Notes: a model not told the origin generated them from the letters alone. A stretch of DNA of 64,000 nucleotides from Pedobacter sp. (GCA_050253415.1 JBFWJC010000001.1:1672679-1736678), one strand, 5' to 3'. Shown: positions 18,535 through 63,125, numbered from the stretch's first letter. Numbers and translations are program-made.

Positions 18535-18637
18535 CAGGCCTGATCTGACAGTTAGCTTGATCTCTGTCCTGCGGGCCTCATGAGGCTGTATCGATTTAAA
18601 GATGAATAAAGTGCATGCTGGCCGTGGGGTGCGCTGC

Positions 18638-18704: not shown

Positions 18705-18804
18705 CGAGAGTTCTGTTTTATACTCAATTCATTTTGTAAACATTTGTGTTTTTTTGCGCCGGTTTGGCGTGGGCTAAATTTACTGCATTGTCCGGAGGGA
18801 AAAG

Positions 18805-19563
18805 ATGCGCAGACCCTTTATTGCCGGAAACTGGAAACTACATAAAACAAGAGCGGAATCCATTGCCTTGGTAGAGAAACTCAAGGCTGGTCTTGTCGAC
18901 ATTGTGGATCGTGACATTGTCGTTGCGCCTGTGTTTACATCCCTGTCTTCCGTGGCAGCTGTTCTGTCCGATAGCAATGTGTCCTTGGCTGCTCAGAACT
19001 GTTATCCTGAAACCCAGGGGGCATTTACCGGAGAGGTGTCGCCGGCTTTACTGGCTGATGCCGGTTGCCGTTACGTGATTGTCGGACATTCCGAGCGCCG
19101 TCAGCTTTTTGGCGAAACCGACGCATTTATCAACCGCAAGGCCAGGGCGGTGATCGCTGCCGGCATGTATGCGATTTTCTGTATCGGTGAAACGCTGGAA
19201 GAGCGGGAGGCCGATAAAACTTTCGAAGTGCTTAAACAACAGGTGCTTGCCGGTCTGGAAGGCCTTACATCCGGGGACATGAGCCAAGTCGTCTTGGCTT
19301 ACGAGCCTGTGTGGGCCATAGGTACCGGTAAAACGGCCAGTGACGAGCAGGCCCAACAGGCGCATAACTTCATTCGTCAGCTGATCGCTGATTTATTCGA
19401 CCACAGAGTTGCTCAGCAACTGCGGATTGTTTATGGTGGCAGCGTCAAGCCTGATAATGTCGATGGTCTTCTGCGGCAACCCGATATTGACGGTGCTCTG
19501 GTTGGCGGGGCCAGCCTGAAAGCCGAGGACTTTATTCGTATCGTGCGGTTTCAAGCCGTTTAA
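18805..19563 (+). CDS. tpiA: Triosephosphate isomerase
   Basis: AGNWK, GAFTGEVS, VGHSERR, AYEPVWAIGTG, YGGSVKP, GALVGGASL. Confidence 0.96.
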   Translation: MRRPFIAGNWKLHKTRAESIALVEKLKAGLVDIVDRDIVVAPVFTSLSSVAAVLSDSNVSLAAQNCYPETQGAFTGEVSPALLADAGCRYVIVGHSERRQLFGETDAFINRKARAVIAAGMYAIFCIGETLEEREADKTFEVLKQQVLAGLEGLTSGDMSQVVLAYEPVWAIGTGKTASDEQAQQAHNFIRQLIADLFDHRVAQQLRIVYGGSVKPDNVDGLLRQPDIDGALVGGASLKAEDFIRIVRFQAV

Positions 19564-19688
19564 GAAAAAAGCTTTATGCTGTCTGCAAAAGATCTTTATG
19601 TAGATGGTGCATCGTATTGGTCCTTTTCATTTGCAACGATGTGTGTTAGCTTTTCCGCTTCAAAGAATCGAGTTCACTTTAGGAGTTG

Positions 19689-20048
19689 ATGAAAATGCTT
19701 ACCTTTCTGATTATTCTGCATGTGCTTGTCTGTGTGGCCCTCATCATCATCGTACTGCTTCAGGGCGGCAAGGGTGCTGAAGTCGGCGCAGCATTTGGCG
19801 GCGGTGGCAGCCAGACGATTTTTGGCGCCAGCGGCGGTGCGAGTTTCATGAGTAAACTTACTACTAGCGCAGCGATCATCTTCATGCTGACCAGCCTTAT
19901 CCTGGCTTACTTCTATAAAATTCCCGGTAGCGATAGTATCATGCCGGAAACAATGGCGGCACCGTCTGCTCAGGAAGAGGCGATGCAACCTGTTGAGGTG
20001 CCTGCTGTTCCGGCTCCTGCACAAGAAACGGCTGCACCGGCAAACTAA
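19689..20048 (+). CDS. secG: Preprotein translocase subunit SecG
   Basis: VLLQGGKGAEVGAAFGGG motif, two hydrophobic helices, canonical position between tpiA and tRNA-Leu. Confidence 0.92.
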   Translation: MKMLTFLIILHVLVCVALIIIVLLQGGKGAEVGAAFGGGGSQTIFGASGGASFMSKLTTSAAIIFMLTSLILAYFYKIPGSDSIMPETMAAPSAQEEAMQPVEVPAVPAPAQETAAPAN

Positions 20049-20116
20049 AAATGATTTTTGCTGAATTTCATGTTGACAGCAGCGAATCAAAACATGTATA
20101 AAGTTTTTCGCTTCAA

Positions 20117-20203
20117 GCCGAAGTGGTGGAACTGGTAGACACGCCATCTTGAGGGGGTGGTGGCCAATTGGTCGTGCGAGTTCGAGTCTCGCCTTCGGCA
20201 CCA
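20117..20203 (+). tRNA. tRNA-Leu(GAG)
   Basis: GCCGAAGTGGTGGAACTGGTAGACACGCCATCTTGAGGGGGTGG...GTTCGAGTCTCGCCTTCGGCACCA; long variable arm, GAG anticodon. Confidence 0.96.
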
Positions 20204-20213
20204 TAAAAATTAG

Positions 20214-20251
20214 AAGAGCCCGTGATCGAAATGATTGCGGGCTCTTTTTTT
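20214..20251 (+). terminator. Intrinsic terminator after tRNA-Leu
   Basis: AAGAGCCCGTGATC-gaaat-GATTGCGGGCTCTT followed by a T run. Confidence 0.85.
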
Positions 20252-20650
20252 ATTTAAACGTCAGTATATATGTATACTCTATTAAAATACTTGTAATAGC
20301 CAAATTAATTTGTTATACCACCGTCATGAAATTTTTAATGTAGTACTTCTTTCTTTCTCCCACATATTTTACAAATAAATTTTGCAATGCCCTTCTTTAC
20401 CATATGCATGGTAGCGGGTGGATAAGGTACCTCTTTATCTACTTGTCGGAAGCGTAGTTGCTGTGATTTGACTTGGAGTTTCTTCCACTGCACCGATTTA
20501 GTGTCTGCAGGGAGTAGTCTATAGTTATCGTTGTTTTTTTGATATATATCGCCCTGGTGTTGGTACCTTTTCTTGGCATTAGGTGTTTCTTTAATCTCAA
20601 TATTTTATGGATTAAATCTATTTGGCCACGTAATTTAAAGGAAGACAGAT

Positions 20651-48469: not shown

Positions 48470-49516
48470 ATGATGAGACCCATTGAGACATCCTTCACCA
48501 AGATTCTGTCCCTGTCCAGTGATGAGGCGCTAAAACGGCGCTTCATGATCCTTGACGAACTGATCCAGGCCAATATGCGATTCGGATTGTTGTTGGAGGT
48601 TCTGGATAAAGTGGCGGAAGAAGCCGCTCTGTGTTACGTCAACCGCTTCTTTCCCGATGCCCGGGTGGTCACGGCAGCCATCGACAATATCGTTGTCCGG
48701 CATGTCACCGATATGTCGAAAGATGTACATTTCAAAGCACGCATCAATCATGTAGGTCGTTCTTCACTTGAAATCGGTATTCGCGTTGAGCAACCCGGGG
48801 GGCCGGTAAGGCATATCGCGTCCTGCTATTTCACCATGGTCGCCCGCTCCGGTGTCGGGGAGGGAGCCACCAGTGTCGTACTGCCCGGTTTGGAATATAC
48901 CGAAGAAATTGAGAAGCAACGTGCCGCCAAAGCCTTGCACCGGCGCGAGGAATACAAACAGCAGCAGGCACTGCTGCGCGAACCCCCCAGCCGGGAAGAG
49001 TTTGAAATGCTGACCGGACTGCATGCTGCGCAGGATGAGCCCGGGTTCAACGGCCTGCTGACCGGTAACCTCACTGCGGATGCCTGGGAACGGATGTACC
49101 CGGAGCAGGAAAACGTGCCCAAGAAGATTTTCGGGGGATACCTGATTCGACGTGCTTACGAGCTGTCGTCCATCTGCTCCGAGCAGGTGGCACCCAACCG
49201 CCCCATCGCGGCGGCGGTCAACCGGATCAACTTTTTTCACCCGGTGCGCATGGGAGACACACTCCATTACACTTCGCGCGTAGTGTATACCAGCGGCAGT
49301 TTCATCTGTGTGGAAGCCAATATCGAACGCATCAGCCGTGACCGGACCACGAAGGCTATGTCCAACTCCTGTCTGTTCACCTTCGTGAATGTCGATGCTG
49401 AATTACAACAGCAGCCGGTGCCTGTTGTCTACCCGACCAATTACGGGGAGGATGCCCGCTATCTTGCGGCGCATCGCAGTTGTCAAAACTTGATGAAGGA
49501 TCGTCAGCTGATTTGA
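48470..49516 (+). CDS. Double hotdog-fold acyl-CoA thioesterase
   Basis: VVTAAID, VGRSSLEIGIRV, KIFGGYLIRRAYEL, FFHPVRMGD. Confidence 0.85.
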   Translation: MMRPIETSFTKILSLSSDEALKRRFMILDELIQANMRFGLLLEVLDKVAEEAALCYVNRFFPDARVVTAAIDNIVVRHVTDMSKDVHFKARINHVGRSSLEIGIRVEQPGGPVRHIASCYFTMVARSGVGEGATSVVLPGLEYTEEIEKQRAAKALHRREEYKQQQALLREPPSREEFEMLTGLHAAQDEPGFNGLLTGNLTADAWERMYPEQENVPKKIFGGYLIRRAYELSSICSEQVAPNRPIAAAVNRINFFHPVRMGDTLHYTSRVVYTSGSFICVEANIERISRDRTTKAMSNSCLFTFVNVDAELQQQPVPVVYPTNYGEDARYLAAHRSCQNLMKDRQLI

Positions 49517-49558
49517 TGTAACGGTAACGGCAAGTGTTATTGTAAGACTGATTTTTTT

Positions 49559-49592
49559 ACTAAAAAAGCCCGTTAGAACGGGCTTTTTTAGT
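49559..49592. terminator. Bidirectional intrinsic terminator
   Basis: ACTAAAAAAGCCCGTT-ag-AACGGGCTTTTTTAGT. Confidence 0.85.
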
Positions 49593-49716
49593 ATGTGTTG
49601 ATTAGCTTGACAGCGCATGGGATCCATGTGAATCGCCCCATGCTAAATTATCTTCCGCAGTTAGAATTCCATTCCTTTGCTGCATTTTGGTGAAGTACAA
49701 ATTTGAGCCCAGGAAA

Positions 49717-51270
49717 TTAAACCCCTGTGTTCGGAGCGGGTTTCGCTTGTGAGGATTTTTCAGGTGTAATTTCGCCAAGATATTTGGGTAGCTCGATCCC
49801 CGCCATTCCAGCTACTTCGTGCAGTGGTGGCAGGCTCTTGATCAATCCGGAAAGAAAATTTGAGGTTGCGGTGCCGTCTTGACCGCCACTGGCGGAATCC
49901 CAGACGGTGACCTTGTCGATTTTGATGTTACGGATAGCCTCTACCTGCAGTTGGACGATATCCTGTATTTTTTCGGTCATGAGCAGGGTTGCCGCCGATT
50001 TCGCATCGCCATTACAGCCTTGTACCAGATTGAGATAACCTGCTGCTTTACTTTCCAGAACCAAACGTACGCCTTCGGCCTCTGCCTGATATTTCAGGAG
50101 GATCGCGTCGGCTTGGCCTTTTGCCTCGCGGCGGGTTTTTTCTGCTTCCGCTTCGGCCGCAATTTCGATTTTTTTCTTTTCAACTTCCTGGCGCACCACC
50201 TCTTCTGCGTTGAGCCGTTCCAATTCCGCCTTGTATTGGGCTTTTTGGATTTCAACTTCTGCCTCGCGGCGCGCCACCTCGCCGCGTTGCTGGGCGGAGG
50301 CCTGTTTTACCACCAGTTCGGCGACGGCATCGGCGATATCGGCTTTTGCACGGTTTTCGCCATCCACCGCGTGGGCTTCCTGTTGCTGCACAACGATGCG
50401 TCGATCAGCTTCGGCCATTTTTTGGCCTTTTGCAGACTCCGCGACATTTTCGGCAACTTTGATCTCTTTTTCGCGATTTGCTACGGCTTCGCCTATGGTG
50501 GCTTCCGATTCTTGCTGCTGGACAAAAATGCGCTGGTCCGCTTCCGCCTTTTTCTTGCCTTTTTCCGACTCGGCGACGTTTTCCGCTACCCTGATTTCTT
50601 TTACCCTGGTTGCCTCAGCTTCACCGATGGCTCCAAGCTGCTCTTGCTGGGCCACGTCAACCTTGGCCTGGTTAATGGCCTCCGAGGCGGCTTTCTTGCC
50701 AATGGAGTCGATGTAGCCGGATTCGTCGGTGATGTCGGTAATGTTGACGTTGATCAGAAATAAACCAATTTTATTCAATTCCGGAGAAACATTTCTACGT
50801 ATCGAATCAAGAAAGCTCTCGCGGTCCTGATTGATCTGCTCGATGGTCAACGAAGCCACGGTAAGTCGCAACTGGCCAAAGATGATTTCTTTGGCCATTT
50901 CCTCAATCTGATTCTGTGTGAGGTGAAGCAGGCGCTCGGCCGCTGAAGTCATGACTTCCTGTTCGGTGCTGATGCCGACCGTGAAGGTCGAAGGAACGTT
51001 AATGCGGATATTCTGCAAGGAAAGGGCTTTTTGCAGGGGGATGCTGATGGTCATCGGTGTCAGGCTGATATAGGCATAATCCTGAATCAATGGCCATATG
51101 AAGGTACCACCTCCGTGGATACAATTTGCAGATTGTCCCGCCCCCACCTTCCCGTAGACCACAAGTATCTTATCTGAGGGACAACGCTTATAGCGGGAAG
51201 CAAGATAAGTGATCGTCGACACAATAAGGATGAGGAACGCGGCAATAGGAACGATCCAAAAATCGAACAT
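49717..51270 (-). CDS. Flotillin (SPFH domain + EA-rich coiled coil; FloT-like)
   Basis: N-terminal TM, RYKRCPSDKILVVYGK, IHGGGTFIWP, GQLRLTVASLTIEQIN, IKIDKVTVWD. Confidence 0.92.
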   Translation of the reverse strand: MFDFWIVPIAAFLILIVSTITYLASRYKRCPSDKILVVYGKVGAGQSANCIHGGGTFIWPLIQDYAYISLTPMTISIPLQKALSLQNIRINVPSTFTVGISTEQEVMTSAAERLLHLTQNQIEEMAKEIIFGQLRLTVASLTIEQINQDRESFLDSIRRNVSPELNKIGLFLINVNITDITDESGYIDSIGKKAASEAINQAKVDVAQQEQLGAIGEAEATRVKEIRVAENVAESEKGKKKAEADQRIFVQQQESEATIGEAVANREKEIKVAENVAESAKGQKMAEADRRIVVQQQEAHAVDGENRAKADIADAVAELVVKQASAQQRGEVARREAEVEIQKAQYKAELERLNAEEVVRQEVEKKKIEIAAEAEAEKTRREAKGQADAILLKYQAEAEGVRLVLESKAAGYLNLVQGCNGDAKSAATLLMTEKIQDIVQLQVEAIRNIKIDKVTVWDSASGGQDGTATSNFLSGLIKSLPPLHEVAGMAGIELPKYLGEITPEKSSQAKPAPNTGV

Positions 51271-51280
51271 GTTTAATCCT

Positions 51281-51892
51281 TTACTTGTTTAATGTTTCTA
51301 TGATGAGGATGTTGGCACGTACCTCAATGACCTGTATGGGCGTTCCGGTTGGCACTTTTCTTCCATTTACTTCGGTAGCATCGAATTCGCGGAGACGATT
51401 TTGAAAATTGATACTCACGAGTCCCATACCTCCTTCGGGGATAGTCAGATAAACGATTCCGGTGCTACCTACAGCGTCACGGGTTTGCAATGTTCCGCTC
51501 GAATGCAGTTGCGATGCCATCCGGAAGAGCTTGCCGATGACCCACACCGAGGCCAGTCCTGCTCCAACCGCTCCGATAATGGAAAGGACAACCCCCATCT
51601 GGCTCTGTCGGTATAGGGCGAGCCCCACCAAACCGAACATCATGAAAAAAGAGGAGAGGCCCTGCAGGGAGAGGGCGCGAAAGCCAACATCAGAGTCCGG
51701 ATGTTCCGTATCAAAATCGATACCACCGTCACTGCCAATGTCTGTATCAACATCGCCGCCGAAAAATTGCATGACAAGTTTGATCAGAACAAAGAATCCG
51801 CCGATGATGGCGCCAATCAGGAAGAACGTCTCTAACCCGTTAAAATCTGTAAAAGTATTTATCAATGCATACCTCTCTTTTGCTTCTCCCAC
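51281..51892 (-). CDS. NfeD-like (YuaF-type) membrane protein
   Basis: Three TM segments plus OB-fold C-terminus (VGSTGIVYLTIP...REFDA); immediately upstream of flotillin. Confidence 0.82.
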   Translation of the reverse strand: MGEAKERYALINTFTDFNGLETFFLIGAIIGGFFVLIKLVMQFFGGDVDTDIGSDGGIDFDTEHPDSDVGFRALSLQGLSSFFMMFGLVGLALYRQSQMGVVLSIIGAVGAGLASVWVIGKLFRMASQLHSSGTLQTRDAVGSTGIVYLTIPEGGMGLVSINFQNRLREFDATEVNGRKVPTGTPIQVIEVRANILIIETLNK

Positions 51893-51998
51893 CTTGCGAT
51901 CAATGGCCGAACACTACATCGGACCCATTTGTCCATTTAGAGGAACCATGACAACGGAAATGAAGGTCATCCCTTCTTTTCGGTTCAAATTGAAAGAT

Positions 51999-52532
51999 TT
52001 ATTCACTTATGTTTTTTATGAAGGCCAGGGCCTCGACGCGAGAGGGGTGCGATTTTAACTGTTTGGCAATGAGGTATAGCTTATCGAAAAGTTCGTTGCC
52101 AAATTCCTGCTGAGCCCAATGGATATAGGCGTCTCTATGGGCACTTTCACGTTGTTTGTTTTGCCATGAGGTGGTCCAAAAGTCGGCAATATTGTCAAGA
52201 AGATGGGCCGTTGCAAGTTTGTGCCATTCGCCACGATCAAACCAAATGCCGCCACAGCGACTGCACCGATCCAGGTAGAAGGGATCATTCGATGTGATTT
52301 TAACCCGGGATAAGATTCCATGACCCAGGGGGCAGAGTCCCGTTACACTGTCAATGTGTGTGGTTTTATCGGAGTGCCGCCCGATTTGGCTGAGAACGCT
52401 TTCCTGCGTCATAAACTTTGGTATTTGATCGGCGTGTATCCAGAAGCCTCCGCAATTGCTGCATTTAATCGGGCCCCCTTGGGAGGATGTAACGCATTGC
52501 AATGTAAATGTTTTGCATTTAGGGCAGTCCAT
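51999..52532 (-). CDS. Double zinc-ribbon (zf-TFIIB-like) protein
   Basis: CPKC...CSNCGGFW and CPLGHG...CSRCGGIWFDRGE. Confidence 0.75.
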   Translation of the reverse strand: MDCPKCKTFTLQCVTSSQGGPIKCSNCGGFWIHADQIPKFMTQESVLSQIGRHSDKTTHIDSVTGLCPLGHGILSRVKITSNDPFYLDRCSRCGGIWFDRGEWHKLATAHLLDNIADFWTTSWQNKQRESAHRDAYIHWAQQEFGNELFDKLYLIAKQLKSHPSRVEALAFIKNISE

Positions 52533-53003
52533 AATGGCTAATGGTCCTTTCCGTTTTTTTGTTCTGGCAATTTTTTGCAAATTATCGGTCAGCTGTTTAT
52601 GGACTTCTTCAAATGTATGGCTGCATTAAACAATCTACGGAGAAACACCTGCCTTAGATATATGGGAACACCATAAAAGCTATTTTTGTATGGCTGTAAG
52701 CATAAACGTTTATAGCGTTGCACTTACAAAAAAACACTCAATTAAGAACTTTGGGTTCGTGGTTGCAATAAAATAATGGAGTTCTTTTAACATTGTGGTT
52801 GGAAGAAATCAATAAGCTTTAACTTTTTTACCATGTCTTTCCACTTTGCTACCGCAATCCAAGGAGGAGAATAATTATTTCAGCGCGGACGAATCTTCTT
52901 TGCTTATGGAATGGTTGCAGCAAAAGGGGCGCGCACTTATGCGGCATATTGCGGTGGCGTTTTGTGCCCATCCGCCTACTTCTGGATGGGCACAAAACGG
53001 TTT

Positions 53004-56000
53004 TCATCCTGCCATGGCCTCCAGGGCCAGACGCCTGGCAGTGCCGAGATCCGTTTTTCCTGTACCTAAACGGGGGATTTGTTCCACCTCCAAGAACATG
53101 GCAGGCAGCATGATGGGAATGATTTCGCCGATCAGGCTTTTCTTGATCGCGTCTCCTGACCATTCGGATTTCACCAATGCTACGATGCGTTCTCCCTTTT
53201 TAGTATCGGGTACCGCGACCGCCACAATCTCGGTTCCATTCGGGGTAATTTTGAGGATGGCGTCCTCTACCGCCGCCAGGCTGACCATCTCGCCACCAAT
53301 CTTGGCAAATCGTGAATAGCGCCCGAGAATCGTCAAAAAGCCATCTTCGTCCAGCATCCCCTTGTCGCCGCTTTTATACCAGCGAATACCGTTTTGTTCG
53401 ACGAGAGCTTCCCTGGTCCGCTCCTCATCTCCCAGGTAGCCCTGCATTATCTGGGTTCCGCCTATCAGGATCAATCCCGCCTCATCCGGCGGAAGGTCCT
53501 GCAGCGTCTGAGGATCGACGATTCGAAAGGTGCTGCCGGGCAGGGGCAGTCCTACCGTGCCGGGTTTGTGTCCCAACTGCACGGAAAAATCGGTCATATT
53601 CAAGGCATCGTTGACATTGACGCTGGCGACGGGGGTCGTTTCCGTGGTGCCGTAGCCTTCATGAATCTCCAACCCGAAACGATCGCGAAATGCCTGGCGG
53701 ATTTCGTTCGGCAAACGTTCCGCCCCGGCCACCACCTGTCGCAGGCTGCGGAACATCAAGGGATGCAGCTTTTTATTGCGTGCGTACATGCCCAGAAAAG
53801 TCGGTGTTCCGCACAGAATGGTGACCCCGTGTTCGGCTACCAGGCGGCCGACTTTACGGGCATCGGTAGGATCCGGCTGACAGACAAGAGGAATGCCCTG
53901 CAACAGCGGCAAAAAGGTGGTAATGGTCAGGCCGAAAGCGTGAAACAGGGGCAAGGTTGCCAGGATGACATCATCCTGGCAAGCATTGAGCAGACAGCTG
54001 ACCTGACGAATGTTGCCGACGATGTTGGTGTGGCTGAGCATCACGCCCTTGGGAGTGCCTTCACTGCCGCTGCTGAACAGGATGGTTGCGGTATCCTCCC
54101 GGGACGCTCGCTTGAAAAATATCGGTCGCAGTATAAAGACCGGTAACACGCGGGCCATGATCAGGCAAAGCAGCAGCGCCACCCGGTTCAGGTTGCGTCG
54201 CACATCCTCCAGGTAGACCACCTGCCTGCCTTCAAACGCTGCATCCAGATCGAAGCCTTTGGCCCTCAGTCGGGTCAAAAAGCGCTCCGAAGTCACCACC
54301 GTTTTAATCTCTGCTTTATTCATGCATTTGGCCATGATATCGGCACCGGCAGTGTAATTGAGGTTGACGACCGTCTTGGCCCGCATCAGTAAGGACAGGT
54401 TGGCCATAATGCCGCCGGCGCTGGGGGGCAACAAGACCCCGACATTTCTGACTTCGCCGACGAGCTTTGCGAGTTGTTTTGATATGGCCAGGCAGGCTCC
54501 CAGCAGCCGGGTGCCGGAAAATGAGGTGCCGTCCGCATCGATGATGCAAGTACTGCCCATATCCTTTTTGACTCTTTTGAGCCAGGATACGTCCAGGGTG
54601 TCAAAGGTGTCGCTGTAATATTTCCAGGTTTCGATGGAGAGATGAAAAACCGCGGCTTTGACCTGGCGGGCATCGGCCTCCCGCGGTAGCGGCTTACCGA
54701 AACTGACCGTAACGTCACGCACTGTACCGCGTCCGGTCGTGCGTCGCAGTTTGGCCGACGCGAAGGAAAACGCACTGCCCCAAAGACCCCGAAGATAAAA
54801 AGGAACAATCACGCAATCGGCGTGACGCGCCGCTTCTTCAAAGCCTCGTTTGAATTCGCCAAGTTGACCGTTACGGCTCAGGGCTCCCTCGGGAAACAAT
54901 GCCACGACTTCGCCCCGGTCCAAGGCTTTGCTGACTTCCTCCAGGGCGCTGCGAAAACCGCGTCCCGAGATGGGAATAGCGTGAAACAGATCGAGCGCCC
55001 AGCGCCAGTACCAGCGTTCGTAGAAACTGCGTGCCATGACAAAGCGTAACGGTCGGGGTACCGCCAGTTGCAAAACAGCCCAGTCAAGGAAACTGGTGTG
55101 GTTTCCAAGCAGCAGCACGCCGCCTTGGGAGGGGATGTTGTTAAGTCCTGAGACGGTGAGGTTGTAGCGTTGTGACACAACAACCCGTAACAGATACCGT
55201 AACAACGACTGGGGCAATTTCCACAGGGCATAGATCGTTCCGACCAACACGATGGCCGAGAGTATCTTAAACAGAGGTACGCTGCTGATCCCGTAGTTTG
55301 CGGCCAGTAAGGTGCCGCCCAGAAAGAGCAGCATCGCGATATTTTGCATGAAATTGTTGCCGGCCAAAACCCGTCCGAGATCGCCTTCTTTGGCATTAAA
55401 TTGAATGAGGGCGTTGAGAGGGACGACCAGCATACCGCCGGCTATGCCATACAAGAACAGGAGACTGCCCAGGGCCATGGGGTGGGTAATGCCGGGCAGC
55501 AGGAACAGACAAAGGGTCATGATGACGGATGCGGCGGGGATAAGACCCGTTTCGATATAATTTTTACTGCATCGGCCAGCCGTCATGGAGCCAAAGAATA
55601 AACCCACGCCGCCGACCGCCAGCATCCCTTGGGCGACAACCGTATTGTTTTCGCCGACGGTCGCCTTGAGGTGGGCACCAAACGCAGCCAGTAGCACCTG
55701 GTTGACAGCCCAGAAGATACTTAATCCCAGCACTGCAAGCCAGATGGTGTTGTTGTCGGACAGCAATCGAAAGTTCGTGCGCAACTGACGTCCGCTCAGG
55801 TAATCGGACCAATCGAGACGTAGTCGCCGATCACCGGGAATGGTCTTTGGCAAACCACGGGTCAAGAGTGTTTGCAATACGGCACCTGCTACCAGAAAGT
55901 AGCCACTGGGCGCGATAGTGCGCAGGATGTCGGCCGGGGTGAGTGCGGAACCGCCCAGTAAATATTCGAAAATGATCGAATAGATCACGCCGCCAGCCAG

Positions 56001-56453
56001 GATTGCGACAATGGTGACCGATTGCACGATCGCATTGCCACCGGCAAGCTTCTCCTTGCCTACCAGTTCCTTGAGGTAAGCGTATTTGGCCGGCGAATAG
56101 ATGGCACTCTGGGCGGCGAGCAGGAAGGTCAGGGCGAAGGCCGGCCAGAACAGGCCAAGGTGGTAACAGAGGACAATCAGTAGTGTCAGAGGGATGGTTG
56201 CGGCGGCACAGAGTTTGATGACGACATTTTTGGCGAAGCGATCAGACAGGAAGCCGCTGGGGGTAAACAGCAGGATGAAGGGCAACAGAATCAGTGCGTT
56301 GACTACCGCCGTCAGGGCAATTTGTTCCGTTCCTTCGTAACATTTGAAGACGATGTTCTGAATGATAATCTTATGACCAAGATCGGTTATGGTATTGAGC
56401 AACACCACCGCGATATAGGGGGTGAACCCAGGGATGCGAAACATTTGCTTCAT
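53004..56453 (-). CDS. aas: Acyl-[ACP]--phospholipid O-acyltransferase (MFS/LplT + acyltransferase + acyl-ACP synthetase fusion)
   Basis: N-terminal MFS helices, NHTSFLD and FPEG acyltransferase motifs, FSSGSEGTPKGV and EGYGTTETTP AMP-binding motifs. Confidence 0.92.
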   Translation of the reverse strand: MKQMFRIPGFTPYIAVVLLNTITDLGHKIIIQNIVFKCYEGTEQIALTAVVNALILLPFILLFTPSGFLSDRFAKNVVIKLCAAATIPLTLLIVLCYHLGLFWPAFALTFLLAAQSAIYSPAKYAYLKELVGKEKLAGGNAIVQSVTIVAILAGGVIYSIIFEYLLGGSALTPADILRTIAPSGYFLVAGAVLQTLLTRGLPKTIPGDRRLRLDWSDYLSGRQLRTNFRLLSDNNTIWLAVLGLSIFWAVNQVLLAAFGAHLKATVGENNTVVAQGMLAVGGVGLFFGSMTAGRCSKNYIETGLIPAASVIMTLCLFLLPGITHPMALGSLLFLYGIAGGMLVVPLNALIQFNAKEGDLGRVLAGNNFMQNIAMLLFLGGTLLAANYGISSVPLFKILSAIVLVGTIYALWKLPQSLLRYLLRVVVSQRYNLTVSGLNNIPSQGGVLLLGNHTSFLDWAVLQLAVPRPLRFVMARSFYERWYWRWALDLFHAIPISGRGFRSALEEVSKALDRGEVVALFPEGALSRNGQLGEFKRGFEEAARHADCVIVPFYLRGLWGSAFSFASAKLRRTTGRGTVRDVTVSFGKPLPREADARQVKAAVFHLSIETWKYYSDTFDTLDVSWLKRVKKDMGSTCIIDADGTSFSGTRLLGACLAISKQLAKLVGEVRNVGVLLPPSAGGIMANLSLLMRAKTVVNLNYTAGADIMAKCMNKAEIKTVVTSERFLTRLRAKGFDLDAAFEGRQVVYLEDVRRNLNRVALLLCLIMARVLPVFILRPIFFKRASREDTATILFSSGSEGTPKGVMLSHTNIVGNIRQVSCLLNACQDDVILATLPLFHAFGLTITTFLPLLQGIPLVCQPDPTDARKVGRLVAEHGVTILCGTPTFLGMYARNKKLHPLMFRSLRQVVAGAERLPNEIRQAFRDRFGLEIHEGYGTTETTPVASVNVNDALNMTDFSVQLGHKPGTVGLPLPGSTFRIVDPQTLQDLPPDEAGLILIGGTQIMQGYLGDEERTREALVEQNGIRWYKSGDKGMLDEDGFLTILGRYSRFAKIGGEMVSLAAVEDAILKITPNGTEIVAVAVPDTKKGERIVALVKSEWSGDAIKKSLIGEIIPIMLPAMFLEVEQIPRLGTGKTDLGTARRLALEAMAG

Positions 56454-56537
56454 AAAAAATCCTCCCCACAGACGGGCGATTATTGCTACGCCTGATAGTT
56501 ACAAATGAAATCCCATTAAACACAATAAATCTTTGCA

Positions 56538-56566
56538 AAACTACAGAGTTCATTGGTTTATGTCAA
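56538..56566 (-). promoter_or_regulatory. Possible internal sigma70 promoter for aas
   Basis: TTGACA-17 bp-TAGTTT. Confidence 0.45.
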
Positions 56567-56613
56567 TGGCCAAAGGCGGGTTACCCGATACCCTTCGGAA
56601 GGTTGAGGTTTGC

Positions 56614-57249
56614 TTATGTCTGTTTTCGCCACGGTGCGTTGACATAGAGCTGGCTCCACCAGACCAGGCTGATTATGATTCCAGCCGAAAGGCCCGCTGC
56701 ATGGGCCTGCGGCACAGACGGCCATGCCGTTGCGGTAAACAGTGCTTGATCGTGAAGGGCTTCCAGGGCGATTTTCAAGGTAGCGGCAAAACCTATAACG
56801 ACTACCAGTCCACTGCGGCTGGTACGCCACTGTTGCATCAGGCCGGCCGCCAGCAGGGTATTGAGAAGACCCGACAGGCCGCAATAACGCAAGGGAGCCT
56901 GCCCCCACCAGAGCCAGGCATTCACGGCAACCATGCCGCTCGTCATGATGGTGAGAAACTGCCGATGGGAAAACCGGTCTTCAAACAACCACCCCAGAAC
57001 CAGTAACCCAGCCATATCCCAACAGAGATGGGAAAGGTCGCAATGAATCAGATGTCCGGTTACCAACCGCCACCACTGGCCGTGTGTGACCGCTACACGG
57101 TCAAAAACCAAAGCGGGGGATGCGGGGCCGGCCACGAGGTAGAGTAAAAGGGCCAGGGCGGCCATGATCAGGGTCAACCATGGTACGCCCTGGAGGATAT
57201 GATGCATATTCAAAGCAATATTATGATCATTTGAAGTCTTGCTTGCCAT
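56614..57249 (-). CDS. rrtA: Rhombosortase (rhomboid-family sorting protease)
   Basis: GQWWRLVTGHLIH, HLCWD, YCGLSG (catalytic Ser), AHAAG (catalytic His); adjacent to a GlyGly-CTERM protein. Confidence 0.85.
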   Translation of the reverse strand: MASKTSNDHNIALNMHHILQGVPWLTLIMAALALLLYLVAGPASPALVFDRVAVTHGQWWRLVTGHLIHCDLSHLCWDMAGLLVLGWLFEDRFSHRQFLTIMTSGMVAVNAWLWWGQAPLRYCGLSGLLNTLLAAGLMQQWRTSRSGLVVVIGFAATLKIALEALHDQALFTATAWPSVPQAHAAGLSAGIIISLVWWSQLYVNAPWRKQT

Positions 57250-57257
57250 GGCAGCTT

Positions 57258-59402
57258 TTAACTCCGATTGCGGTTTTTGCTTTGACCGGTCAGGCGCAGT
57301 GCCGCCAGGGGTGCCAGCAATAAGCCGTACCAGAGATCAAGTGCGCCGCCTCCGCCGCCACCAAAAGAAGAGCGAGGCGAGGTGAACATCGGCTTTGAGC
57401 TATCGACCCGGGTCGATTTTGCAGGCTGTACTGCACGCTGTGCCTGAGCTTTGGTTTCCAGTTCGCGACGGGCCCGGTTACGGCGCTGAACTCCCCGTTG
57501 GGTGAACTGCTCTTCGGACATGACCAGCATCGATGTGTAGTCGGTGACCAGACTGTATTCCAATGCCACATCGGTTATGCCCTGCTTGAGATCCGCTGCT
57601 TCACCGAAATCTTCTATTTCAGCCTGCATATCCTCAATGGACGCATAAGCCCAGAGGCGCTCTACTTCAGGGTTAAGAGCAGACACCGGGGGAAAGTTAA
57701 ACTGGGTCTGGTATGTTTTTGCCTCGCCGGCAACCTTGCCGGACAGACGAACGGTTGCATCGCCACCTTTCCAGTAGTGGCCAAAAATCACCAATTGCTG
57801 GCCGCGGTAAAGACTGCCGATGGTGCGGGGTGTCAAGTCGGCTACCTTGATGCCTTCGATGTCGAGTTTGACGCCATGCAGCGCTTCATGCGAGACCTTA
57901 TCCATAGCCAGCAACAATTTGCCGACAATGTCATCGGCATTGGAAATGCTCAGGGCAAACCCGTTGGATGCTTTGGTGATAGCTTCGAGCAGGGGCAGAT
58001 TGGCACTGTTACCCATGATGAAAGTAAACAGACGGATATCCTTTTTTTCCAGCAGCTGGATAAATTTTCGCTGTGCGGTTTCACCGACATTGGCCACGCC
58101 ATCTGTCACCAGTACAATGGCACCGGTTCGATCGGCATCGAGCCCTCGCAGGCCCATTTCGAGGCCGGCAAACAGGTTGGTACTGCTTGAGGGGTTGACC
58201 TGGGCCACCTTATTACTCCAGGTCGCTACATTCTGCGCATTTGCGGTGACGAAGCCGGAGGTCAGTTCGTGTGCTTCGTCATTGAACAGGACAATGCGGA
58301 ATCGATCATCGGGGCGCATCTTCTTCAAGGCGCGCTGCACGCCATCCGTCAGCGTTGCATATTTGCCCTGCATGGAGCCGGAAATGTCGAGCACAAAAAT
58401 CCAGTCGCGGCCTTCGGTGATCGGTTGCAGATCATCGCCGGGCGTCAGGGTCAACATAAAGGTGCCGCGGTCACTGCCTGCTCCTTTGTGGGCGACCATC
58501 TCGACACTGCCTGGGAGCCCCTGCTGATGGCGCCAATAAATAACAACGTCCTGATCCAGACGGTAGCTCGCATGACCTCGATTGCCGACCGTCGACAGCT
58601 CGTTATGTTCATCTATCGATCCGGAAGAAGGGGTATCAGGGAGAGGGGGCGGAATGAGATCAGGGTTTTGAGCCATGGAATCGGTTGCAACGGTCGCAGC
58701 CTGGTTGGACAGTTGTATCACCCAGTCACCGTTGGTATCACGATTGATCTGGGCCCCTGGGTGATTGGGGAGACGTACCGCATCGACAGGGTAGGAAGAG
58801 CGAATGCGCATGTCAAAACTAAAGTGCCCGGTGACTTCATCGTTAGCCGTCCAGAATGCCAGCTTTTCTTCGTCCACTCCACCGTCTTCGAGGGGATAGA
58901 CGTAACTGCCGATGCCTGTATCGACATGGGCCGGTTGCAGGTAAACCAGTCGCATGCGCGTATCCTGTCCGGCGCGGACCGGGGAAACGCTGATATCAAA
59001 GGTTTTGTAGTGATCTTTCTCGGTCAAGCCGGCATCGCGACCGGCGGCTTTTTCCTCTTCGTAAATACGGCGCGCCTCTTTTTTCTCAAACACCTCTCCC
59101 GTCACCGGCTTTCCGTCGATCCACATGCTAAACTCGGCCACGGCAGCGTGTTCCGGAACCGGGCAGGAGTAAATGGCTTCAAGATCCCGGTCATGGGGGT
59201 TGTGAAACACCTGTTCTACGCTGGTTATGGCATAGCCGTCTTCAACGACGACCTTTACCATGTGGTCGTGAATAGCAAGGGCAGGGAGCGAGCCGTCCTT
59301 TGGCGTCAGCAGCCCCGCAGCGAAAACCTGTGTCCACGAAAACAACATGCAGAAGACCATAGATGTTGCTACGGATATTACCCATTTTGTTCGTTGTGTC
59401 AT
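57258..59402 (-). CDS. Secreted VIT + vWA domain protein with C-terminal GlyGly-CTERM sorting signal
   Basis: Signal peptide; VIT domain (VEQVFHNP..DLEAIY...GEVFEKKEARRIYE); vWA MIDAS FVLDISGSM and LVTDG; tail GGGGGGALDLWYGLLLAPLAALRLTGQSKNRNRS. Confidence 0.9.
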   Translation of the reverse strand: MTQRTKWVISVATSMVFCMLFSWTQVFAAGLLTPKDGSLPALAIHDHMVKVVVEDGYAITSVEQVFHNPHDRDLEAIYSCPVPEHAAVAEFSMWIDGKPVTGEVFEKKEARRIYEEEKAAGRDAGLTEKDHYKTFDISVSPVRAGQDTRMRLVYLQPAHVDTGIGSYVYPLEDGGVDEEKLAFWTANDEVTGHFSFDMRIRSSYPVDAVRLPNHPGAQINRDTNGDWVIQLSNQAATVATDSMAQNPDLIPPPLPDTPSSGSIDEHNELSTVGNRGHASYRLDQDVVIYWRHQQGLPGSVEMVAHKGAGSDRGTFMLTLTPGDDLQPITEGRDWIFVLDISGSMQGKYATLTDGVQRALKKMRPDDRFRIVLFNDEAHELTSGFVTANAQNVATWSNKVAQVNPSSSTNLFAGLEMGLRGLDADRTGAIVLVTDGVANVGETAQRKFIQLLEKKDIRLFTFIMGNSANLPLLEAITKASNGFALSISNADDIVGKLLLAMDKVSHEALHGVKLDIEGIKVADLTPRTIGSLYRGQQLVIFGHYWKGGDATVRLSGKVAGEAKTYQTQFNFPPVSALNPEVERLWAYASIEDMQAEIEDFGEAADLKQGITDVALEYSLVTDYTSMLVMSEEQFTQRGVQRRNRARRELETKAQAQRAVQPAKSTRVDSSKPMFTSPRSSFGGGGGGALDLWYGLLLAPLAALRLTGQSKNRNRS

Positions 59403-59415
59403 TGTTTCCTCCTGT

Positions 59416-59439
59416 TAGTAAATAAACGATTATTTACTA
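59416..59439. promoter_or_regulatory. Candidate TetR operator upstream of the VIT-vWA gene
   Basis: TAGTAAATAA-ACGA-TTATTTACTA perfect 10-bp arms abutting the RBS. Confidence 0.7.
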
Positions 59440-59473
59440 TTGTGGGCAAAAAAATTTGCCTCCGGTTTATCGG

Positions 59474-60043
59474 CTAGCTACAACCCACCAAGCGCTGACA
59501 GGCTTCGATGACCGTCTCTACGGTTTGGTCATTGACGCTCAATCGTCCATAACCATGCATGATCAACGGTTGAAGGATGGCTCCCATCAAAAGACCGGCC
59601 AGTAAAACCGGGTCCTGATCAGAGATGTCGCCTTCCGTTATCCCTCGGCGGATAAAGTTGATGGCCATATCGTTGGGATTGTTTTTTTCATCCAGAATTG
59701 CCTGTTCCGGGAAGTTGTGTTGACTGAGCAGGATAAAAGAGAAACGGTCAGGATGTTGAGCGTAATAACGGTAGATATACCGTATTGCATCGGCAAGTCG
59801 GTCGGAGAACGTCCCCTTGCTCTGCAGGATCGGCAACAGCAAATCGGTAAAGTTCTTTAATTCCTGGGAAAAGAGCTGCCATGCCATGGAGTTTTTGCTT
59901 TTGTAGTGCCTGTAAAGCGCTCCTTCCGTGGCTCCGGCTTCCATGGCGATATCCTTCAGGGTGGTTGCGGCCAGCCCCTTACGGGAAAAAAGTTTGATTG
60001 CTGCCGTTTCGATGTTTGTTTTTTTACTGATGGGGCGTGCCAT
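59474..60043 (-). CDS. TetR/AcrR family transcriptional regulator
   Basis: AAIKLFSRKGLAATTLKDIAMEAGATEGALYRHYKSK HTH. Confidence 0.92.
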   Translation of the reverse strand: MARPISKKTNIETAAIKLFSRKGLAATTLKDIAMEAGATEGALYRHYKSKNSMAWQLFSQELKNFTDLLLPILQSKGTFSDRLADAIRYIYRYYAQHPDRFSFILLSQHNFPEQAILDEKNNPNDMAINFIRRGITEGDISDQDPVLLAGLLMGAILQPLIMHGYGRLSVNDQTVETVIEACQRLVGCS

Positions 60044-60061
60044 GCTTGATCCCTCCATTGA

Positions 60062-60085
60062 AATTAAGTAAACATTTACTTACTA
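60062..60085. promoter_or_regulatory. Candidate TetR autoregulatory operator
   Basis: Core TAAGTAAA-CA-TTTACTTA; its reverse complement matches 59416-59439 at 18 of 24 positions and overlaps the -10 region downstream of TTGACA (60101-60096). Confidence 0.7.
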
Positions 60086-60167
60086 ATTGTGGAGCTGTCA
60101 AGTGAAAATTATTATTATCTTAAAGAAAGGACCCGGGAAGGGAGGGGGGCAATAAGCATAAAGGACC

Positions 60168-61376
60168 TTAAAATTGGCTGCCGATCACTTCGAGTCCCAG
60201 AGTTTTCAGTTCCTGGCAATGCTCGCGAACATGTTGCCGTGTTTTGCCAAGGATCAGTCCGCTTGCACGCGGTAAGTTAGGCAAGTGCTCCGTTGCGTCT
60301 GGATTACAGGTAACCAGGGGCACGAATAATCCCTTATCCATGGCGGTGTAAATCGCTTTGATCATGCTCTGGTAAGAATTTGTGCTCCTTAGCCCAGCCA
60401 GCCGCATGGCAGGGTCACCATATTTTTTTCTAAGATTGGCCGCTAACAGTAATGTCGCAGTTGAACCGTTAAGCCGAAAGTTAAGGTCGAATATCAAGAT
60501 TCTTCCATCTTCCATAATGGCCATATCCATCTCGACACAACCCCAATAGCCATGCTTGTAGCCATTTTCGGCAACCCTTCTACCAGCATCGATGGCATCG
60601 GTGGGGGCTTGGCAGTTGTCATCGAGCCAGTTACCGATGTATTTACCTTGCATATCGCTTATCTGCTCGGTACTTCCAATGTAGGATATTTTCCCTTTGG
60701 CAGTGATCGCGTAATTGAGGCAGAGATTGCGGGTCATGGGCAGATACTCTTCGGTGACGACATGCCGGCAGTTACGGAATAAATTCTCTGCGTACTGCAG
60801 GTCTTTCAGGTTGTGGCAGATCGCCACGTCACCGCCTCCGCCTGTTGTTTCGTTCGTTGCGGCCTTAATGACTACCGGCAGTGAGTCATGGACCAGAAAT
60901 TGTCTGAGCTGCCGGGGCGAAACAATACGACGGGCGGGTAATTGGCCAGCGTCGACCAGATGGGTAAGGTGGCCTTTGTTATTAAGAAAAGCGAGTGTCT
61001 CCGGGTTGACCCAGTAGGCATCAGGTCTTGCCTCGGAAGGGTGGGGGGCGTGTTGCAATGCGATTTTCAGGCCTTTTCCAAGCAGGTTACCTATTTGCCG
61101 GTCATGTTCCTTGTTGTTTTTATATCGTACGAGATTACGCGCCTCGGCAAAACCAGCATCGCGTAGTAGCTGCATACCCTCGGCAGTCGCTACGCTGGCG
61201 GCACAGAGTACCGGCATGTCGTCGGCAATGGTCAGCATGCCGCCGCTGAGCATCTCTATGGCGATAGGATCCTGTGGCAGCCAGTTGCGGGTTTTTGGTG
61301 ACGGGGTGGGGGCAAATGCCAATTCGCCACCGTAGATGTCGCCCAAAGTCATTTCAGGAAACAAATCAGGTCTCAA
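60168..61376 (-). CDS. ATP-grasp domain protein (putative amide/peptide ligase)
   Basis: LNNKG, LPVVIK...TGGGGDV, EEYL, GYWGCVEMD...IFDLNFRLNGS; TTGA overlap with the upstream gene. Confidence 0.8.
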   Translation of the reverse strand: MRPDLFPEMTLGDIYGGELAFAPTPSPKTRNWLPQDPIAIEMLSGGMLTIADDMPVLCAASVATAEGMQLLRDAGFAEARNLVRYKNNKEHDRQIGNLLGKGLKIALQHAPHPSEARPDAYWVNPETLAFLNNKGHLTHLVDAGQLPARRIVSPRQLRQFLVHDSLPVVIKAATNETTGGGGDVAICHNLKDLQYAENLFRNCRHVVTEEYLPMTRNLCLNYAITAKGKISYIGSTEQISDMQGKYIGNWLDDNCQAPTDAIDAGRRVAENGYKHGYWGCVEMDMAIMEDGRILIFDLNFRLNGSTATLLLAANLRKKYGDPAMRLAGLRSTNSYQSMIKAIYTAMDKGLFVPLVTCNPDATEHLPNLPRASGLILGKTRQHVREHCQELKTLGLEVIGSQF

Positions 61377-62305
61377 GCTATTGTCTCCTGGCTATCAGGA
61401 TCTATAAAAGTCTGTACGGTAGAGCGGGTATGCACCAATGATGGCAGACCTGTAGCAAGATTTTCGAGCAAGTCCATCTGAGCTTGAGAGGCACTGTTCA
61501 GATTGAAGCATGGGGTGCGGTTGGCGTCCAGCAGTACCGCTTGATCATTGACCAACACAAAATCGAACTTGCCGTAATCGAAACCCATGGCGGCGCGTGT
61601 TTGGCGCAAAGACTCAGGGATAGCGATGCCTGCTTCGCGACGTATAATGTTGCTGGCTTTTACAATCGGGTGTGAAGAGACCGTTTTCTGGCTCATTTCG
61701 GTTTTTCCCAAAAAAATCCACTGACGAAGACAGTAATGATCATCCTCGCGTTCGGGTAGAAATTTTTCAACGACCAGATTCTTATTCCACCAGACTGCTG
61801 AGGGAACTTCCATGGGGGACTCGTAGATGGGATAATTATCGGGAGTAAGGTAACCGCTTAAGTACCAGGGAAGCCGTTTTTTGATGCTGTCCACCAGTCG
61901 GGCAACAGGTTTGCGACGAGCCAGACGTCTTTCCATCCCTCCGCCAAAATTCAGGTCGGTTTTGACCAGCACTCTGCCGTTGTAACTATCTGGAATGGTA
62001 ATAATATTAGAGCTTATCTTGCGTTTTGATATAGTGCGGACCCTGCCGTTGATGACGACCGGATACCTTTCGCTAAAAGCCAGGTAGTTGTCAGGGATGA
62101 CCGTTAGGTCGATGTGAATGAACAGGATATCGGCGGGTTCAAAATGCTCAATGCCCCGCAATATGACCACCTCGATGCCCATTTTTGTCCAAAAATCGAT
62201 CAAAATATGCAGCAGGTAGGGGGTCTTCTCGAGTTTTTGCTTGGCATGAGTGAGTATGGCAATTTTTATAGGCATGTTCGATGGGTCTTTTCTGTTTGCG
62301 GTCAT
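61373..62305 (-). CDS. Divergent ATP-grasp-fold protein
   Basis: VLVKTDLNFGG, LVVEKFL, GFDYGKFDFV...LLDANRTP; start may be 62272. Confidence 0.65.
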   Translation of the reverse strand: MTANRKDPSNMPIKIAILTHAKQKLEKTPYLLHILIDFWTKMGIEVVILRGIEHFEPADILFIHIDLTVIPDNYLAFSERYPVVINGRVRTISKRKISSNIITIPDSYNGRVLVKTDLNFGGGMERRLARRKPVARLVDSIKKRLPWYLSGYLTPDNYPIYESPMEVPSAVWWNKNLVVEKFLPEREDDHYCLRQWIFLGKTEMSQKTVSSHPIVKASNIIRREAGIAIPESLRQTRAAMGFDYGKFDFVLVNDQAVLLDANRTPCFNLNSASQAQMDLLENLATGLPSLVHTRSTVQTFIDPDSQETIA

Positions 62306-62315
62306 TGAGTCACGG

Positions 62316-63125
62316 TTACAAAGGATTGCATGTTGTGCAGTGCATTCTGGTGATGTCTGTGGGTTGTTTAACGGGATGGTACAGCTTATTCCATCTCCAA
62401 CCTGGCTTAGTAAAAGATGGTCGAAATCTCATGGTTCCTTTTTTTAACCGGCCTTTATGGTCTTTCGGATTATCGATATAAAATCTGTTTCTATCACCTT
62501 GATTTACAAAAGGTCCGGTACCTCCTATGTCCTGCAACTGGAAACCATTATGAAAAAGCAGGGTAGGTAGCAATTCTTCGTAATGTCCCGTCCACTGTTC
62601 TTGATGCATTCGGTCGATAAAAGACAATGCGTCAGAAGAAATGCGATAGATTGGATTGAAACTGCGATACCTCTCCGCAAGGGGGATTTCTTTTCTTGGG
62701 TGTCGCAGCCCCCACCAATGCCAGTCCGGTTCTTCCTGATATTTACGGATATGACAGGTCAGCAGGTCTGCTCGGCTGGTTTGATAGTGCCTGAAAAGTT
62801 TTTTCCAGTCGCCACGAAAACGTACATCGTATTCAATTACCCAATAAAAATCGTAATGCGGATATTTACGACCGAAATCCATGACTGGAAAATGGCCGCT
62901 GCCGGGAACGATACTGTCGCTGAACATCGGAAACCCGATATTCCCAAGATCCCGGTTTGTAAACTTATGGATATTACCTGTGAACGAAGGTGCCTTGTGC
63001 CCATGGCAATGAAAAAGAATGAATGCATCACTCCCTTTCACGACAGCTTTCTTTATCTTGGAAAAATCTCCATGACTTTGATTATCCGTCAAGTGTGTCA
63101 ATAATAAATAAACCTGAGATGGCAT
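62316..63125 (-). CDS. DUF3405-like putative glycosyltransferase-fold protein
   Basis: YDFYWVIEYDVRFRGDW, SFNPIYRIS, GHYEELLPT, KLYHPVK. Confidence 0.6.
   Translation of the reverse strand: MPSQVYLLLTHLTDNQSHGDFSKIKKAVVKGSDAFILFHCHGHKAPSFTGNIHKFTNRDLGNIGFPMFSDSIVPGSGHFPVMDFGRKYPHYDFYWVIEYDVRFRGDWKKLFRHYQTSRADLLTCHIRKYQEEPDWHWWGLRHPRKEIPLAERYRSFNPIYRISSDALSFIDRMHQEQWTGHYEELLPTLLFHNGFQLQDIGGTGPFVNQGDRNRFYIDNPKDHKGRLKKGTMRFRPSFTKPGWRWNKLYHPVKQPTDITRMHCTTCNPL

Follow-up and report, generated by a model that had tools for sequence, protein, structure and literature searches.

The 64,000-nucleotide stretch of DNA analysed here (the window; Pedobacter sp., GCA_050253415.1 JBFWJC010000001.1:1672679-1736678) carries seven consecutive open reading frames (ORFs) on its minus strand, which ORF calling over the 64-kb window places at positions 49717-60058. 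In the order in which they would be transcribed, they encode a TetR-family repressor, a VIT-vWA protein with a GlyGly-CTERM-like tail (hereafter the cargo), a rhombosortase, a fusion of LplT and Aas, a zinc-ribbon protein, a short NfeD-like membrane protein and a flotillin (Table 1). An earlier note on this DNA had described these genes as a single system, headed by matching operators and closed by a terminator at 49559-49592. The gene row was recovered at the same places. The operators, which are two palindromes before the VIT-vWA gene and tetR, and the terminator, which is a perfect 17-bp stem at 49558-49593, were confirmed. The unity of the system did not hold up. The row probably consists of two independent units, a sorting cassette with an LplT-Aas companion (53004-60080) and an unrelated flotillin insertion (49717-52580).

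The rhombosortase gene begins 8 bp past the stop codon of the cargo gene. Wider gaps separate the rhombosortase gene from aas (160 bp) and aas from the zinc-ribbon gene (423 bp when counted from the TTG start of the latter, 471 bp when counted from the alternative ATG at 52532). An Rfam scan of 49000-61000 returned one sub-threshold Thr-leader match, which lies on the terminator hairpin.

Table 1. Features of the locus, listed from the head of the row to its end; positions are those of the window.
Feature	Position	Strand	Evidence or remark
Operator 1, palindrome (AGTAAACATTTACT core) just downstream of a TTGACA hexamer and upstream of tetR	60067..60080	.	Palindrome search; counterpart in genome G008
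TetR-family repressor	59474..60058	-	PF00440 at 1.4e-13
Operator 2, 10-4-10 palindrome directly before the VIT-vWA ribosome-binding site	59417..59438	.	Conserved in loci L037 and L038
VIT-vWA cargo with signal peptide, metal-ion-dependent adhesion site (MIDAS) and GlyGly-CTERM-like tail	57258..59402	-	PF08487 at 1.4e-31 and vWA models
Rhombosortase	56614..57249	-	TIGR03902, 109.4 bits against a cut-off of 84
Promoter-like TTGACA-N17-TAGTTT in the 160-bp gap before aas	56538..56566	-	Putative, read by eye
LplT-Aas fusion (major facilitator superfamily (MFS) lysophospholipid flippase, 2-acyl-glycerophosphoethanolamine acyltransferase, acyl-acyl carrier protein synthetase)	53004..56453	-	NF006386, 1461 bits against 1221
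Hairpin with 16/17-bp perfect stem, immediately 3' of the aas stop codon	52958..52999	.	Homologous in G006 and G001
Strain-specific inserted segment, ~3.4 kb, three genes	49594..52957	.	Homology break against G001/G006; shift in G+C content (GC)
Double zinc-ribbon protein (Zn_ribbon_TFIIB); alternative ATG start at 52532	51999..52580	-	PF13453 at 2.5e-13
Short membrane NfeD, YuaF-like, 203 amino acids (predicted)	51281..51892	-	Pfam matches of homologues and fold match
Flotillin, FloT-like SPFH protein	49717..51270	-	PF01145 (Band_7, 2e-29) and PF15975 (Flot)
Bidirectional intrinsic terminator, common to the convergent thioesterase gene	49558..49593	.	Perfect 17-bp stem with T runs on both sides
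Thioesterase gene, convergent	48470-49516	+	

The TetR, VIT-vWA and rhombosortase unit

The cargo matches the VIT domain model PF08487 (109 bits) and the vWA models PF13768/PF00092, and its MIDAS residues (D339, S341 and S343 of the DxSxS element, T408 and D434) are invariant among the five sequences aligned. As read from the sequence, its C terminus runs from a series of glycines through a hydrophobic helix to basic residues, and every complete cargo homologue ends in a tail of this build. The GlyGly-CTERM tail of the earlier note is therefore upheld in its three-part architecture but not in its profile score, since the GlyGly-CTERM model TIGR03501 gave no match to the cargo in a genome search at E≤1 or in hmmscan at E≤10; the genome search returned a single sub-threshold match elsewhere and none at the cargo gene. 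Against TIGR03788, the model of a marine proteobacterial sortase target, the cargo scored 212 bits (cut-off 551.65), and its GlyGly-type tail stands beside a rhomboid, not an LPXTG tail beside a sortase. A profile search for a GspD-type secretin found four secretin-like loci in the genome that contains the window, none of them over the cut-off. Two VIT-vWA homologues (L164 and L165, in genomes G046 and G269) reach 460-466 bits on TIGR03788 and have a PEP-CTERM-like end (TPEPAALLGLALIALL...), so that VIT-vWA proteins would have three kinds of sorting signal between them; the occurrence of a PEP-CTERM-type tail on a VIT-vWA body was pointed out also by Haft and Varghese.

Only one of six rhomboid-like matches in the genome exceeded the TIGR03902 cut-off, and this is the window rhombosortase (110.4 bits in the genome search). 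The motifs GLSG (residues 124-127) and HAAG, which contains H183, are shared with the five other rhombosortases compared; by this motif reading they supply the rhomboid catalytic Ser (GxSG) and His. Relatives of the cargo were collected by a cargo-alignment scan of one genome per species, which confirmed 558 relatives, of which the best 80 were kept, representing 78 loci. The ORFs of these loci and of two loci from relatives were clustered, and the cargo was counted in 79 loci, L067, which has no more than a fragment, not being among them. A rhombosortase gene lies directly downstream of the cargo gene and co-directional with it in 48 of the 79 loci (45 of the 70 that have at least 1 kb of downstream flank). 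Searches by tblastn add a rhombosortase in L100 and L116, and in G041 the enzyme is encoded elsewhere in the genome, away from the cargo. The adjacency supports the view that the rhombosortase would cleave the cargo tail.

Judged by gene content and order, the TetR, VIT-vWA and rhombosortase genes constitute a conserved unit, predicted to be a dedicated single-cargo rhombosortase system. The grouping of these three genes in the earlier note is thereby confirmed, though units of this kind had already been described. The part of Haft and Varghese (2011; PMC3237569) available to us reports VIT/vWA proteins with GlyGly-CTERM and single-target rhombosortases that adjoin their target and, as in the window, the rhombosortase gene of such a dedicated system is found beside the only gene in the genome for a GlyGly-tailed target; the relatives listed there include Desulfuromonas acetoxidans and Geobacter sp. 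M18. Unlike the present account, that part of the paper describes neither TetR operators nor an LplT/Aas neighbour, and the word acyltransferase is absent from the paper. The TIGR03788/TIGR03784 system likewise pairs a sorting enzyme with an adjacent VIT-vWA body as its only cargo, but the tail is LPXTG-like, the enzyme is a sortase and none of 35 loci has an Aas neighbour.

The palindrome AGTAAA-N-TTTACT occurs exactly twice in the 64 kb, against 0.02 occurrences expected, and none of 100 shuffled sequences reached two. The tetR gene is conserved with 93-95% identity in the congeners G001 and G006 and with 64% identity in G008, where the same type of palindrome precedes it. The regulators upstream of the cargo vary across the loci and comprise divergent TetR (27), XRE-type helix-turn-helix proteins (19), sigma-54 activators (5) and co-directional TetR (3).

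A second type of rhombosortase, with 28-37% identity and over the TIGR03902 cut-off, was seen in G009, G003 and G001 (L039, 9913-11459; L040, 9029-10506; L041, 9060-10504). Each of these genes overlaps the end of an unannotated ORF of 282-320 amino acids, possibly another dedicated cargo, and no Aas or VIT-vWA gene lies nearby in the three loci.

Linkage of LplT-Aas to the GlyGly-tailed cargo

The LplT-Aas fusion protein of the window (1149 amino acids) matches NF006386 over residues 1-1147 and contains MFS_1, Acyltransferase and AMP-binding domains. HTSFLD at 452 and SSGSEGTPK at 794 fit the HX4D acyltransferase motif and the adenylation motif. It is the sole full-length LplT-Aas copy in its genome, and in genomes G042, G044 and G045 too the adjacent Aas is the only one.

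An Aas-type gene adjoins a GlyGly-tailed VIT-vWA gene in 15 of the 79 loci, and in 12 of the 42 cargo loci that have at least 3 kb on both flanks. Ten of the linked genes encode a fused LplT-Aas and five an unfused Aas (~720 amino acids); in the three unfused cases where the next gene is annotated, an LplT-like MFS gene follows, in an operon behind a regulator and divergent from the cargo. The arrangement takes at least five gene orders and involves three regulator types (TetR, XRE-type and sigma-54). The aas gene is downstream of the cargo and co-directional in the window, L120, G024 and G823, upstream in G018 and L061, convergent in Sedimenticola and G565, and divergent in L082 as well as in the unfused cases. 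On the cargo tree (75 rows, of which some scored as Aas-absent are short contigs) the adjacency requires 11 changes, at least nine of them forced by well-supported branches.

The linkage is confined to the GlyGly-tailed form of the protein in the control sets compared. No Aas-type gene stands beside the VIT-vWA gene in 40 control loci without a GlyGly tail, which comprise 35 sortase-type loci over the TIGR03788 cut-off (0 of 35; drawn from 48 such genomes among 401 gammaproteobacteria) and five lower-scoring loci, two with PEP-CTERM-like tails and three without a sorting tail. Nor does one stand beside a rhombosortase with another cargo (0 of 7 loci). Fisher tests, which treat loci as independent and are uncorrected for kinship, gave p=0.002 for 15/79 against 0/40 and p=0.0002 for 12/42 against 0/38. 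Among 401 genomes drawn evenly from the phylum of the window, which belongs to a Desulfuromonadales genome, a rhombosortase was found in 7, a VIT-vWA-like protein in 18 and a full-length fused Aas in 19. In each of the three genomes with a GlyGly cargo (G000, G823 and G565), the genes for cargo, rhombosortase and fused Aas all fall within 4 kb. The remaining four genomes with a rhombosortase in this sample have no cargo homologue and no adjacent Aas, and the six tail-less VIT-vWA loci checked have neither rhombosortase nor Aas. In a sample of 41 relatives the cargo occurs in five genomes and Aas in nine, and Aas is adjacent in all five genomes with the cargo.

The cargo and Aas trees agree coarsely, with the window clade beside gammaproteobacterial copies in both, and the window Aas groups with those of Sedimenticola and Thiodiazotropha, as does the window cargo. 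This agreement is consistent with the two genes having been inherited or transferred together, and occasionally lost. In the window, as in G024 and G823, the cargo-rhombosortase pair has the regulator on one side and aas on the other; two types of Aas operon are represented here, and in both the pair therefore shares the promoter region of the regulator. By these comparisons the cargo-LplT/Aas link is recurrent but facultative, and they support the assignment of aas to the TetR-cargo-rhombosortase unit. A recurrent, tail-specific link between this known cassette and LplT/Aas appears to be undescribed: our literature search, supplements aside, found no publication that pairs 'GlyGly-CTERM' with 'lysophospholipid', and the listed ones that pair 'rhombosortase' with 'acyltransferase' concern other topics, judging by titles and abstract openings. 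The parts available of two studies of LplT/Aas (PMC11416262 and PMC8926400) give lplT itself or arc3 genes as its neighbours, and a link to a rhombosortase cargo was not found described.

Two wider interpretations of Aas were considered and rejected. The cassette-linked genes do not form one specialised clade, since the Aas tree has two deep clades, each of which mixes cargo-linked and cargo-less members. Neither do rhombosortases in general require Aas, since a search at E≤1e-60 found no Aas in G003 and G009, which have rhombosortases of the second type.

Several further features of aas loci were seen. In many of them, with or without the cargo, an Amidohydro_2 (PF04909) gene lies directly upstream of the fused aas or overlaps it (L125, L126 and L127, in G007, G005 and G033; L042, L043, L061, L069, L079, L082 and L100), often divergent from a sigma-54 activator. 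In the Sedimenticola hydrogenitrophicus locus L069 the cassette-linked aas is followed at 18356-20579 by genes for a PlsC-like acyltransferase, a CdsA-like cytidylyltransferase and a CDP-alcohol phosphatidyltransferase, which resemble a small phospholipid-synthesis set. Uliginosibacterium (G043:C8:346624-351022) has two tandem unfused Aas paralogues.

The zinc-ribbon, NfeD and flotillin genes

The flotillin matches PF01145 with 103 bits and PF15975 with 27.7 bits (cut-off 27), and scores 125 bits on the FloT equivalog NF058507, far below its cut-off of 700. The 203-amino-acid ORF upstream of it has no Pfam or NCBIfam match of its own at E≤10, PF01957 included, and none to PF01957 in the genome search; a search of its sequence against solved structures gave only a chance match (E 2.5). 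However, 24 of its 25 aligned homologues match PF01957 (best E 4.7e-6), and homologues bear the name NfeD in their source annotations. Its AlphaFold model has membrane helices followed by a C-terminal beta domain (residues 144-200, pLDDT ~78-92) resembling an oligonucleotide-binding (OB) fold, as expected for NfeD architecture, and the best fold match is the NfeD domain of YuaF (2k14; E 7.7e-6, TM 0.74), followed by 8z5g (QmcA-YbbJ) and 3wwv. On its homologues and its predicted fold we regard the protein as NfeD-like. The pair resembles the YuaF-FloT operon of Bacillus subtilis, in which the flotillin gene likewise lies directly downstream of one for a short membrane NfeD that ends in an OB domain; it differs in the low score of the flotillin on the FloT equivalog and in the additional zinc-ribbon gene, found only in the window.

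These three genes lie on a recent insertion. In the congeners G006 and G001 they are missing at this site, and the thioesterase gene abuts aas. Nucleotide homology to these genomes breaks off at ~49514, where the thioesterase gene ends, and is found again from ~52980-52998, at the hairpin 3' of aas. This hairpin, which may end or stabilise the transcript, extends into the 3' end of aas and lacks a T run on that strand; in both congeners the homologous region precedes the thioesterase gene. The terminator of the window is homologous to the one in G001 that directly follows aas and the thioesterase gene. The GC of the inserted segment is 0.44-0.49 compared with ~0.55 in the cassette; a repeat search found no flanking direct repeats or mobile-element signature at its borders. 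The comparison indicates that this segment, with its zinc-ribbon, NfeD and flotillin genes, was inserted in this strain only, between the hairpin and an old terminator, and we take the module to be functionally unrelated to the cassette.

An NfeD-flotillin pair occurs in G005 and G022 (flotillin 80-82% and NfeD 53-56% identical to the window), with no zinc-ribbon, aas, rhombosortase or cargo gene nearby, G022 being seen as a 4-kb contig only. In a metagenome scan the zinc-ribbon protein had distant matches (25-37% identity) at four loci, and NfeD and flotillin were absent from all four. The flotillin is shared at 80-82% identity by the window, a congener and a member of another family, and is missing from most relatives (present in 3 of 21 genomes). 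This distribution suggests lateral spread of the NfeD-flotillin pair.

The earlier note had seen in all seven genes one inducible pathway, in which a VIT-vWA protein is anchored to lipid, phospholipid is recycled and the whole is organised in NfeD-flotillin microdomains. The arrangement gives this some appeal, since the genes share one strand with no canonical terminator before the far end, and transcription could continue through the aas hairpin into the flotillin module, which would tell against two separate units. However, the hairpin, with its perfect stem, and an AT-rich spacer of 423-471 bp that contains no operator part aas from the zinc-ribbon gene. The note had itself held that a linkage not conserved elsewhere would speak against it, and this is what was found for the distal three genes: they are lacking from the site in G001 and G006 and have no homologues in any of the 78 related loci (window queries, E≤1e-4). 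Five cassette-bearing genomes contain 21 Band_7 genes, all of them more than 10 kb from the cassette, and G005, which has the NfeD-flotillin pair, has no rhombosortase over the cut-off and no cargo VIT-vWA anywhere. This non-conservation largely refutes the one-pathway model, which we now consider highly improbable. A same-strand gene row, however tidy, may be a recent splice of unrelated modules.

A possible role for LplT-Aas in cargo anchoring

For the cassette we propose the following sequence of events. TetR would bind the two palindromes, at its own promoter and before the cargo gene, and induction would release both; the cassette genes may then be co-transcribed. The induced VIT-vWA protein, with its metal-binding MIDAS site, would be exported by Sec and held by its tail, which the rhombosortase is predicted to cut at the glycine run. 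On the model of VesB from Vibrio cholerae, the glycine newly exposed at the C terminus would be joined to a glycerophosphoethanolamine lipid of the phosphatidylethanolamine (PE) type, and the protein may be displayed on the surface. For VesB, the part of the report available (PMC6219818) describes cleavage at GlyGly by the rhombosortase and attachment of a glycerophosphoethanolamine-containing moiety, the lipid evidence being limited to a remnant of glycerophosphoethanolamine and a single intact mass that would fit PE; its authors do not exclude a second enzyme. VesB and its rhombosortase RssP serve as the model for the mechanism proposed at the window. They differ from it in forming a many-to-one system with a protease cargo and proven dependence on type II secretion, and no Aas involvement is reported, 'Aas' and 'lyso' occurring nowhere in the text available.

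The fused LplT-Aas would import lysophospholipid and re-acylate it to a diacyl phospholipid, as suggested by its linkage and by the activity known for the family, LplT/Aas being described as re-acylating lyso-PE (PMC11416262, in the part available). The separate proteins of E. coli and the fused PA3267 of P. aeruginosa combine the same three activities, according to the available text of PMC11416262 and PMC8926400, and the window has them in a single polypeptide. Within the proposed sequence of events, LplT-Aas would most likely preserve the anchor lipid pool, either through a fresh supply of PE or through repair of lyso-forms, while the cargo is induced or its anchor is remodelled or shed. 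We tentatively suggest that LplT/Aas is an unrecognised accessory of rhombosortase sorting of VIT-vWA cargo: attachment, remodelling or shedding of the anchor would make lyso-forms or drain PE, and a co-inherited flippase and acyltransferase would repair the damage. The nearest analogies to such a role may be the Lnt-LplT-Aas lipoprotein cycle and the lipid remodelling of eukaryotic glycosylphosphatidylinositol anchors. A lipid-repair enzyme that tracks one class of rhombosortase cargo would point to the origin or fate of the anchor lipid. Aas tracks the GlyGly cargo across several phyla and does not track the sortase-sorted version of the same protein.

A number of observations weigh against this reading of the cassette. 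Transamidation onto PE yields no lysophospholipid in itself, which leaves a chemical need for Aas unexplained, and the tail at which cleavage would occur is the one that TIGR03501 fails to score. Control of aas by TetR is plausible, though unproven, because no operator palindrome precedes aas in the 64-kb search and the 160-bp gap contains a promoter-like site; this site scores below the threshold of the promoter scan, and a similar one, TTGACA-N17-TAGATT, precedes aas in G008. The loci of the wide scan are the 80 best matches to the cargo query rather than a random sample, and kin among them are not independent. Of the 42 flank-adequate cargo loci, 30 have no Aas nearby; in G041, where the rhombosortase gene is distal to the cargo, no Aas was found at E≤1e-60, and in G043 two Aas genes are ~30 kb from the cargo-rhombosortase pair. 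Aas operons without the cargo are found in four of the nine Aas genomes among the relatives and in 16 of the 19 fused-Aas genomes of the phylum sample. That most cargo loci and G041 have no Aas also speaks for Aas as a bystander, with cargo and rhombosortase as a small mobile two-gene unit that enters or leaves regulator-aas operons with no function in common, the real system being TetR, cargo and rhombosortase only. Intact operons without the pair do exist: G008 has operator 1, tetR, operator 2 and aas in this order (tetR 64% and aas 73% identical), and in G005, G007 and G033 amidohydrolase_2-aas has a sigma-54 activator as its divergent neighbour. A bystander does not readily account for an adjacency that recurs with fused and unfused Aas, through the variety of gene orders and regulators and the forced changes on the cargo tree described above, and that is missing from all tail-less, sortase-type and PEP-type controls and from rhombosortases with other cargo. 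For a single-copy gene in a 4-Mb genome, the chance of falling within 10 kb of a given gene is estimated at ~0.5%. We regard the bystander explanation as rather unlikely.

The cargo and LplT/Aas could also be co-regulated arms of a response to phospholipase attack on the membrane or to lysophospholipid stress, in which a VIT-vWA layer protects or adheres and Aas repairs the membrane, with no anchor chemistry involved. The available parts of PMC8926400 and PMC11416262 report that LplT/Aas protects against phospholipase attack and that aas neighbours defence genes (arc3) in many bacteria, and the sharing of regulators in divergent operons and the phospholipid-synthesis-like genes after aas in L069 are in keeping with such a response. 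However, no inducer is known, and a general response of this kind leaves unexplained why the link is to the rhombosortase-sorted VIT-vWA alone and in none of the 35 loci to the sortase-type protein; we consider it unlikely. The earlier placing of aas in one pathway with the cargo and rhombosortase is supported as far as the recurrent linkage goes, and the lipid anchor and recycling that were to explain it stay conjectural.

Upstream of tetR, three more co-directional genes occupy 60168-63125 on the minus strand and are 90-93% conserved in G006. They encode an LdmS-like ATP-grasp ligase (NF047900, 214 bits against a cut-off of 475), a 310-amino-acid ORF without a family and a 269-amino-acid ORF with a short DUF3405 match. 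The GC drops to 0.36 past 62500.

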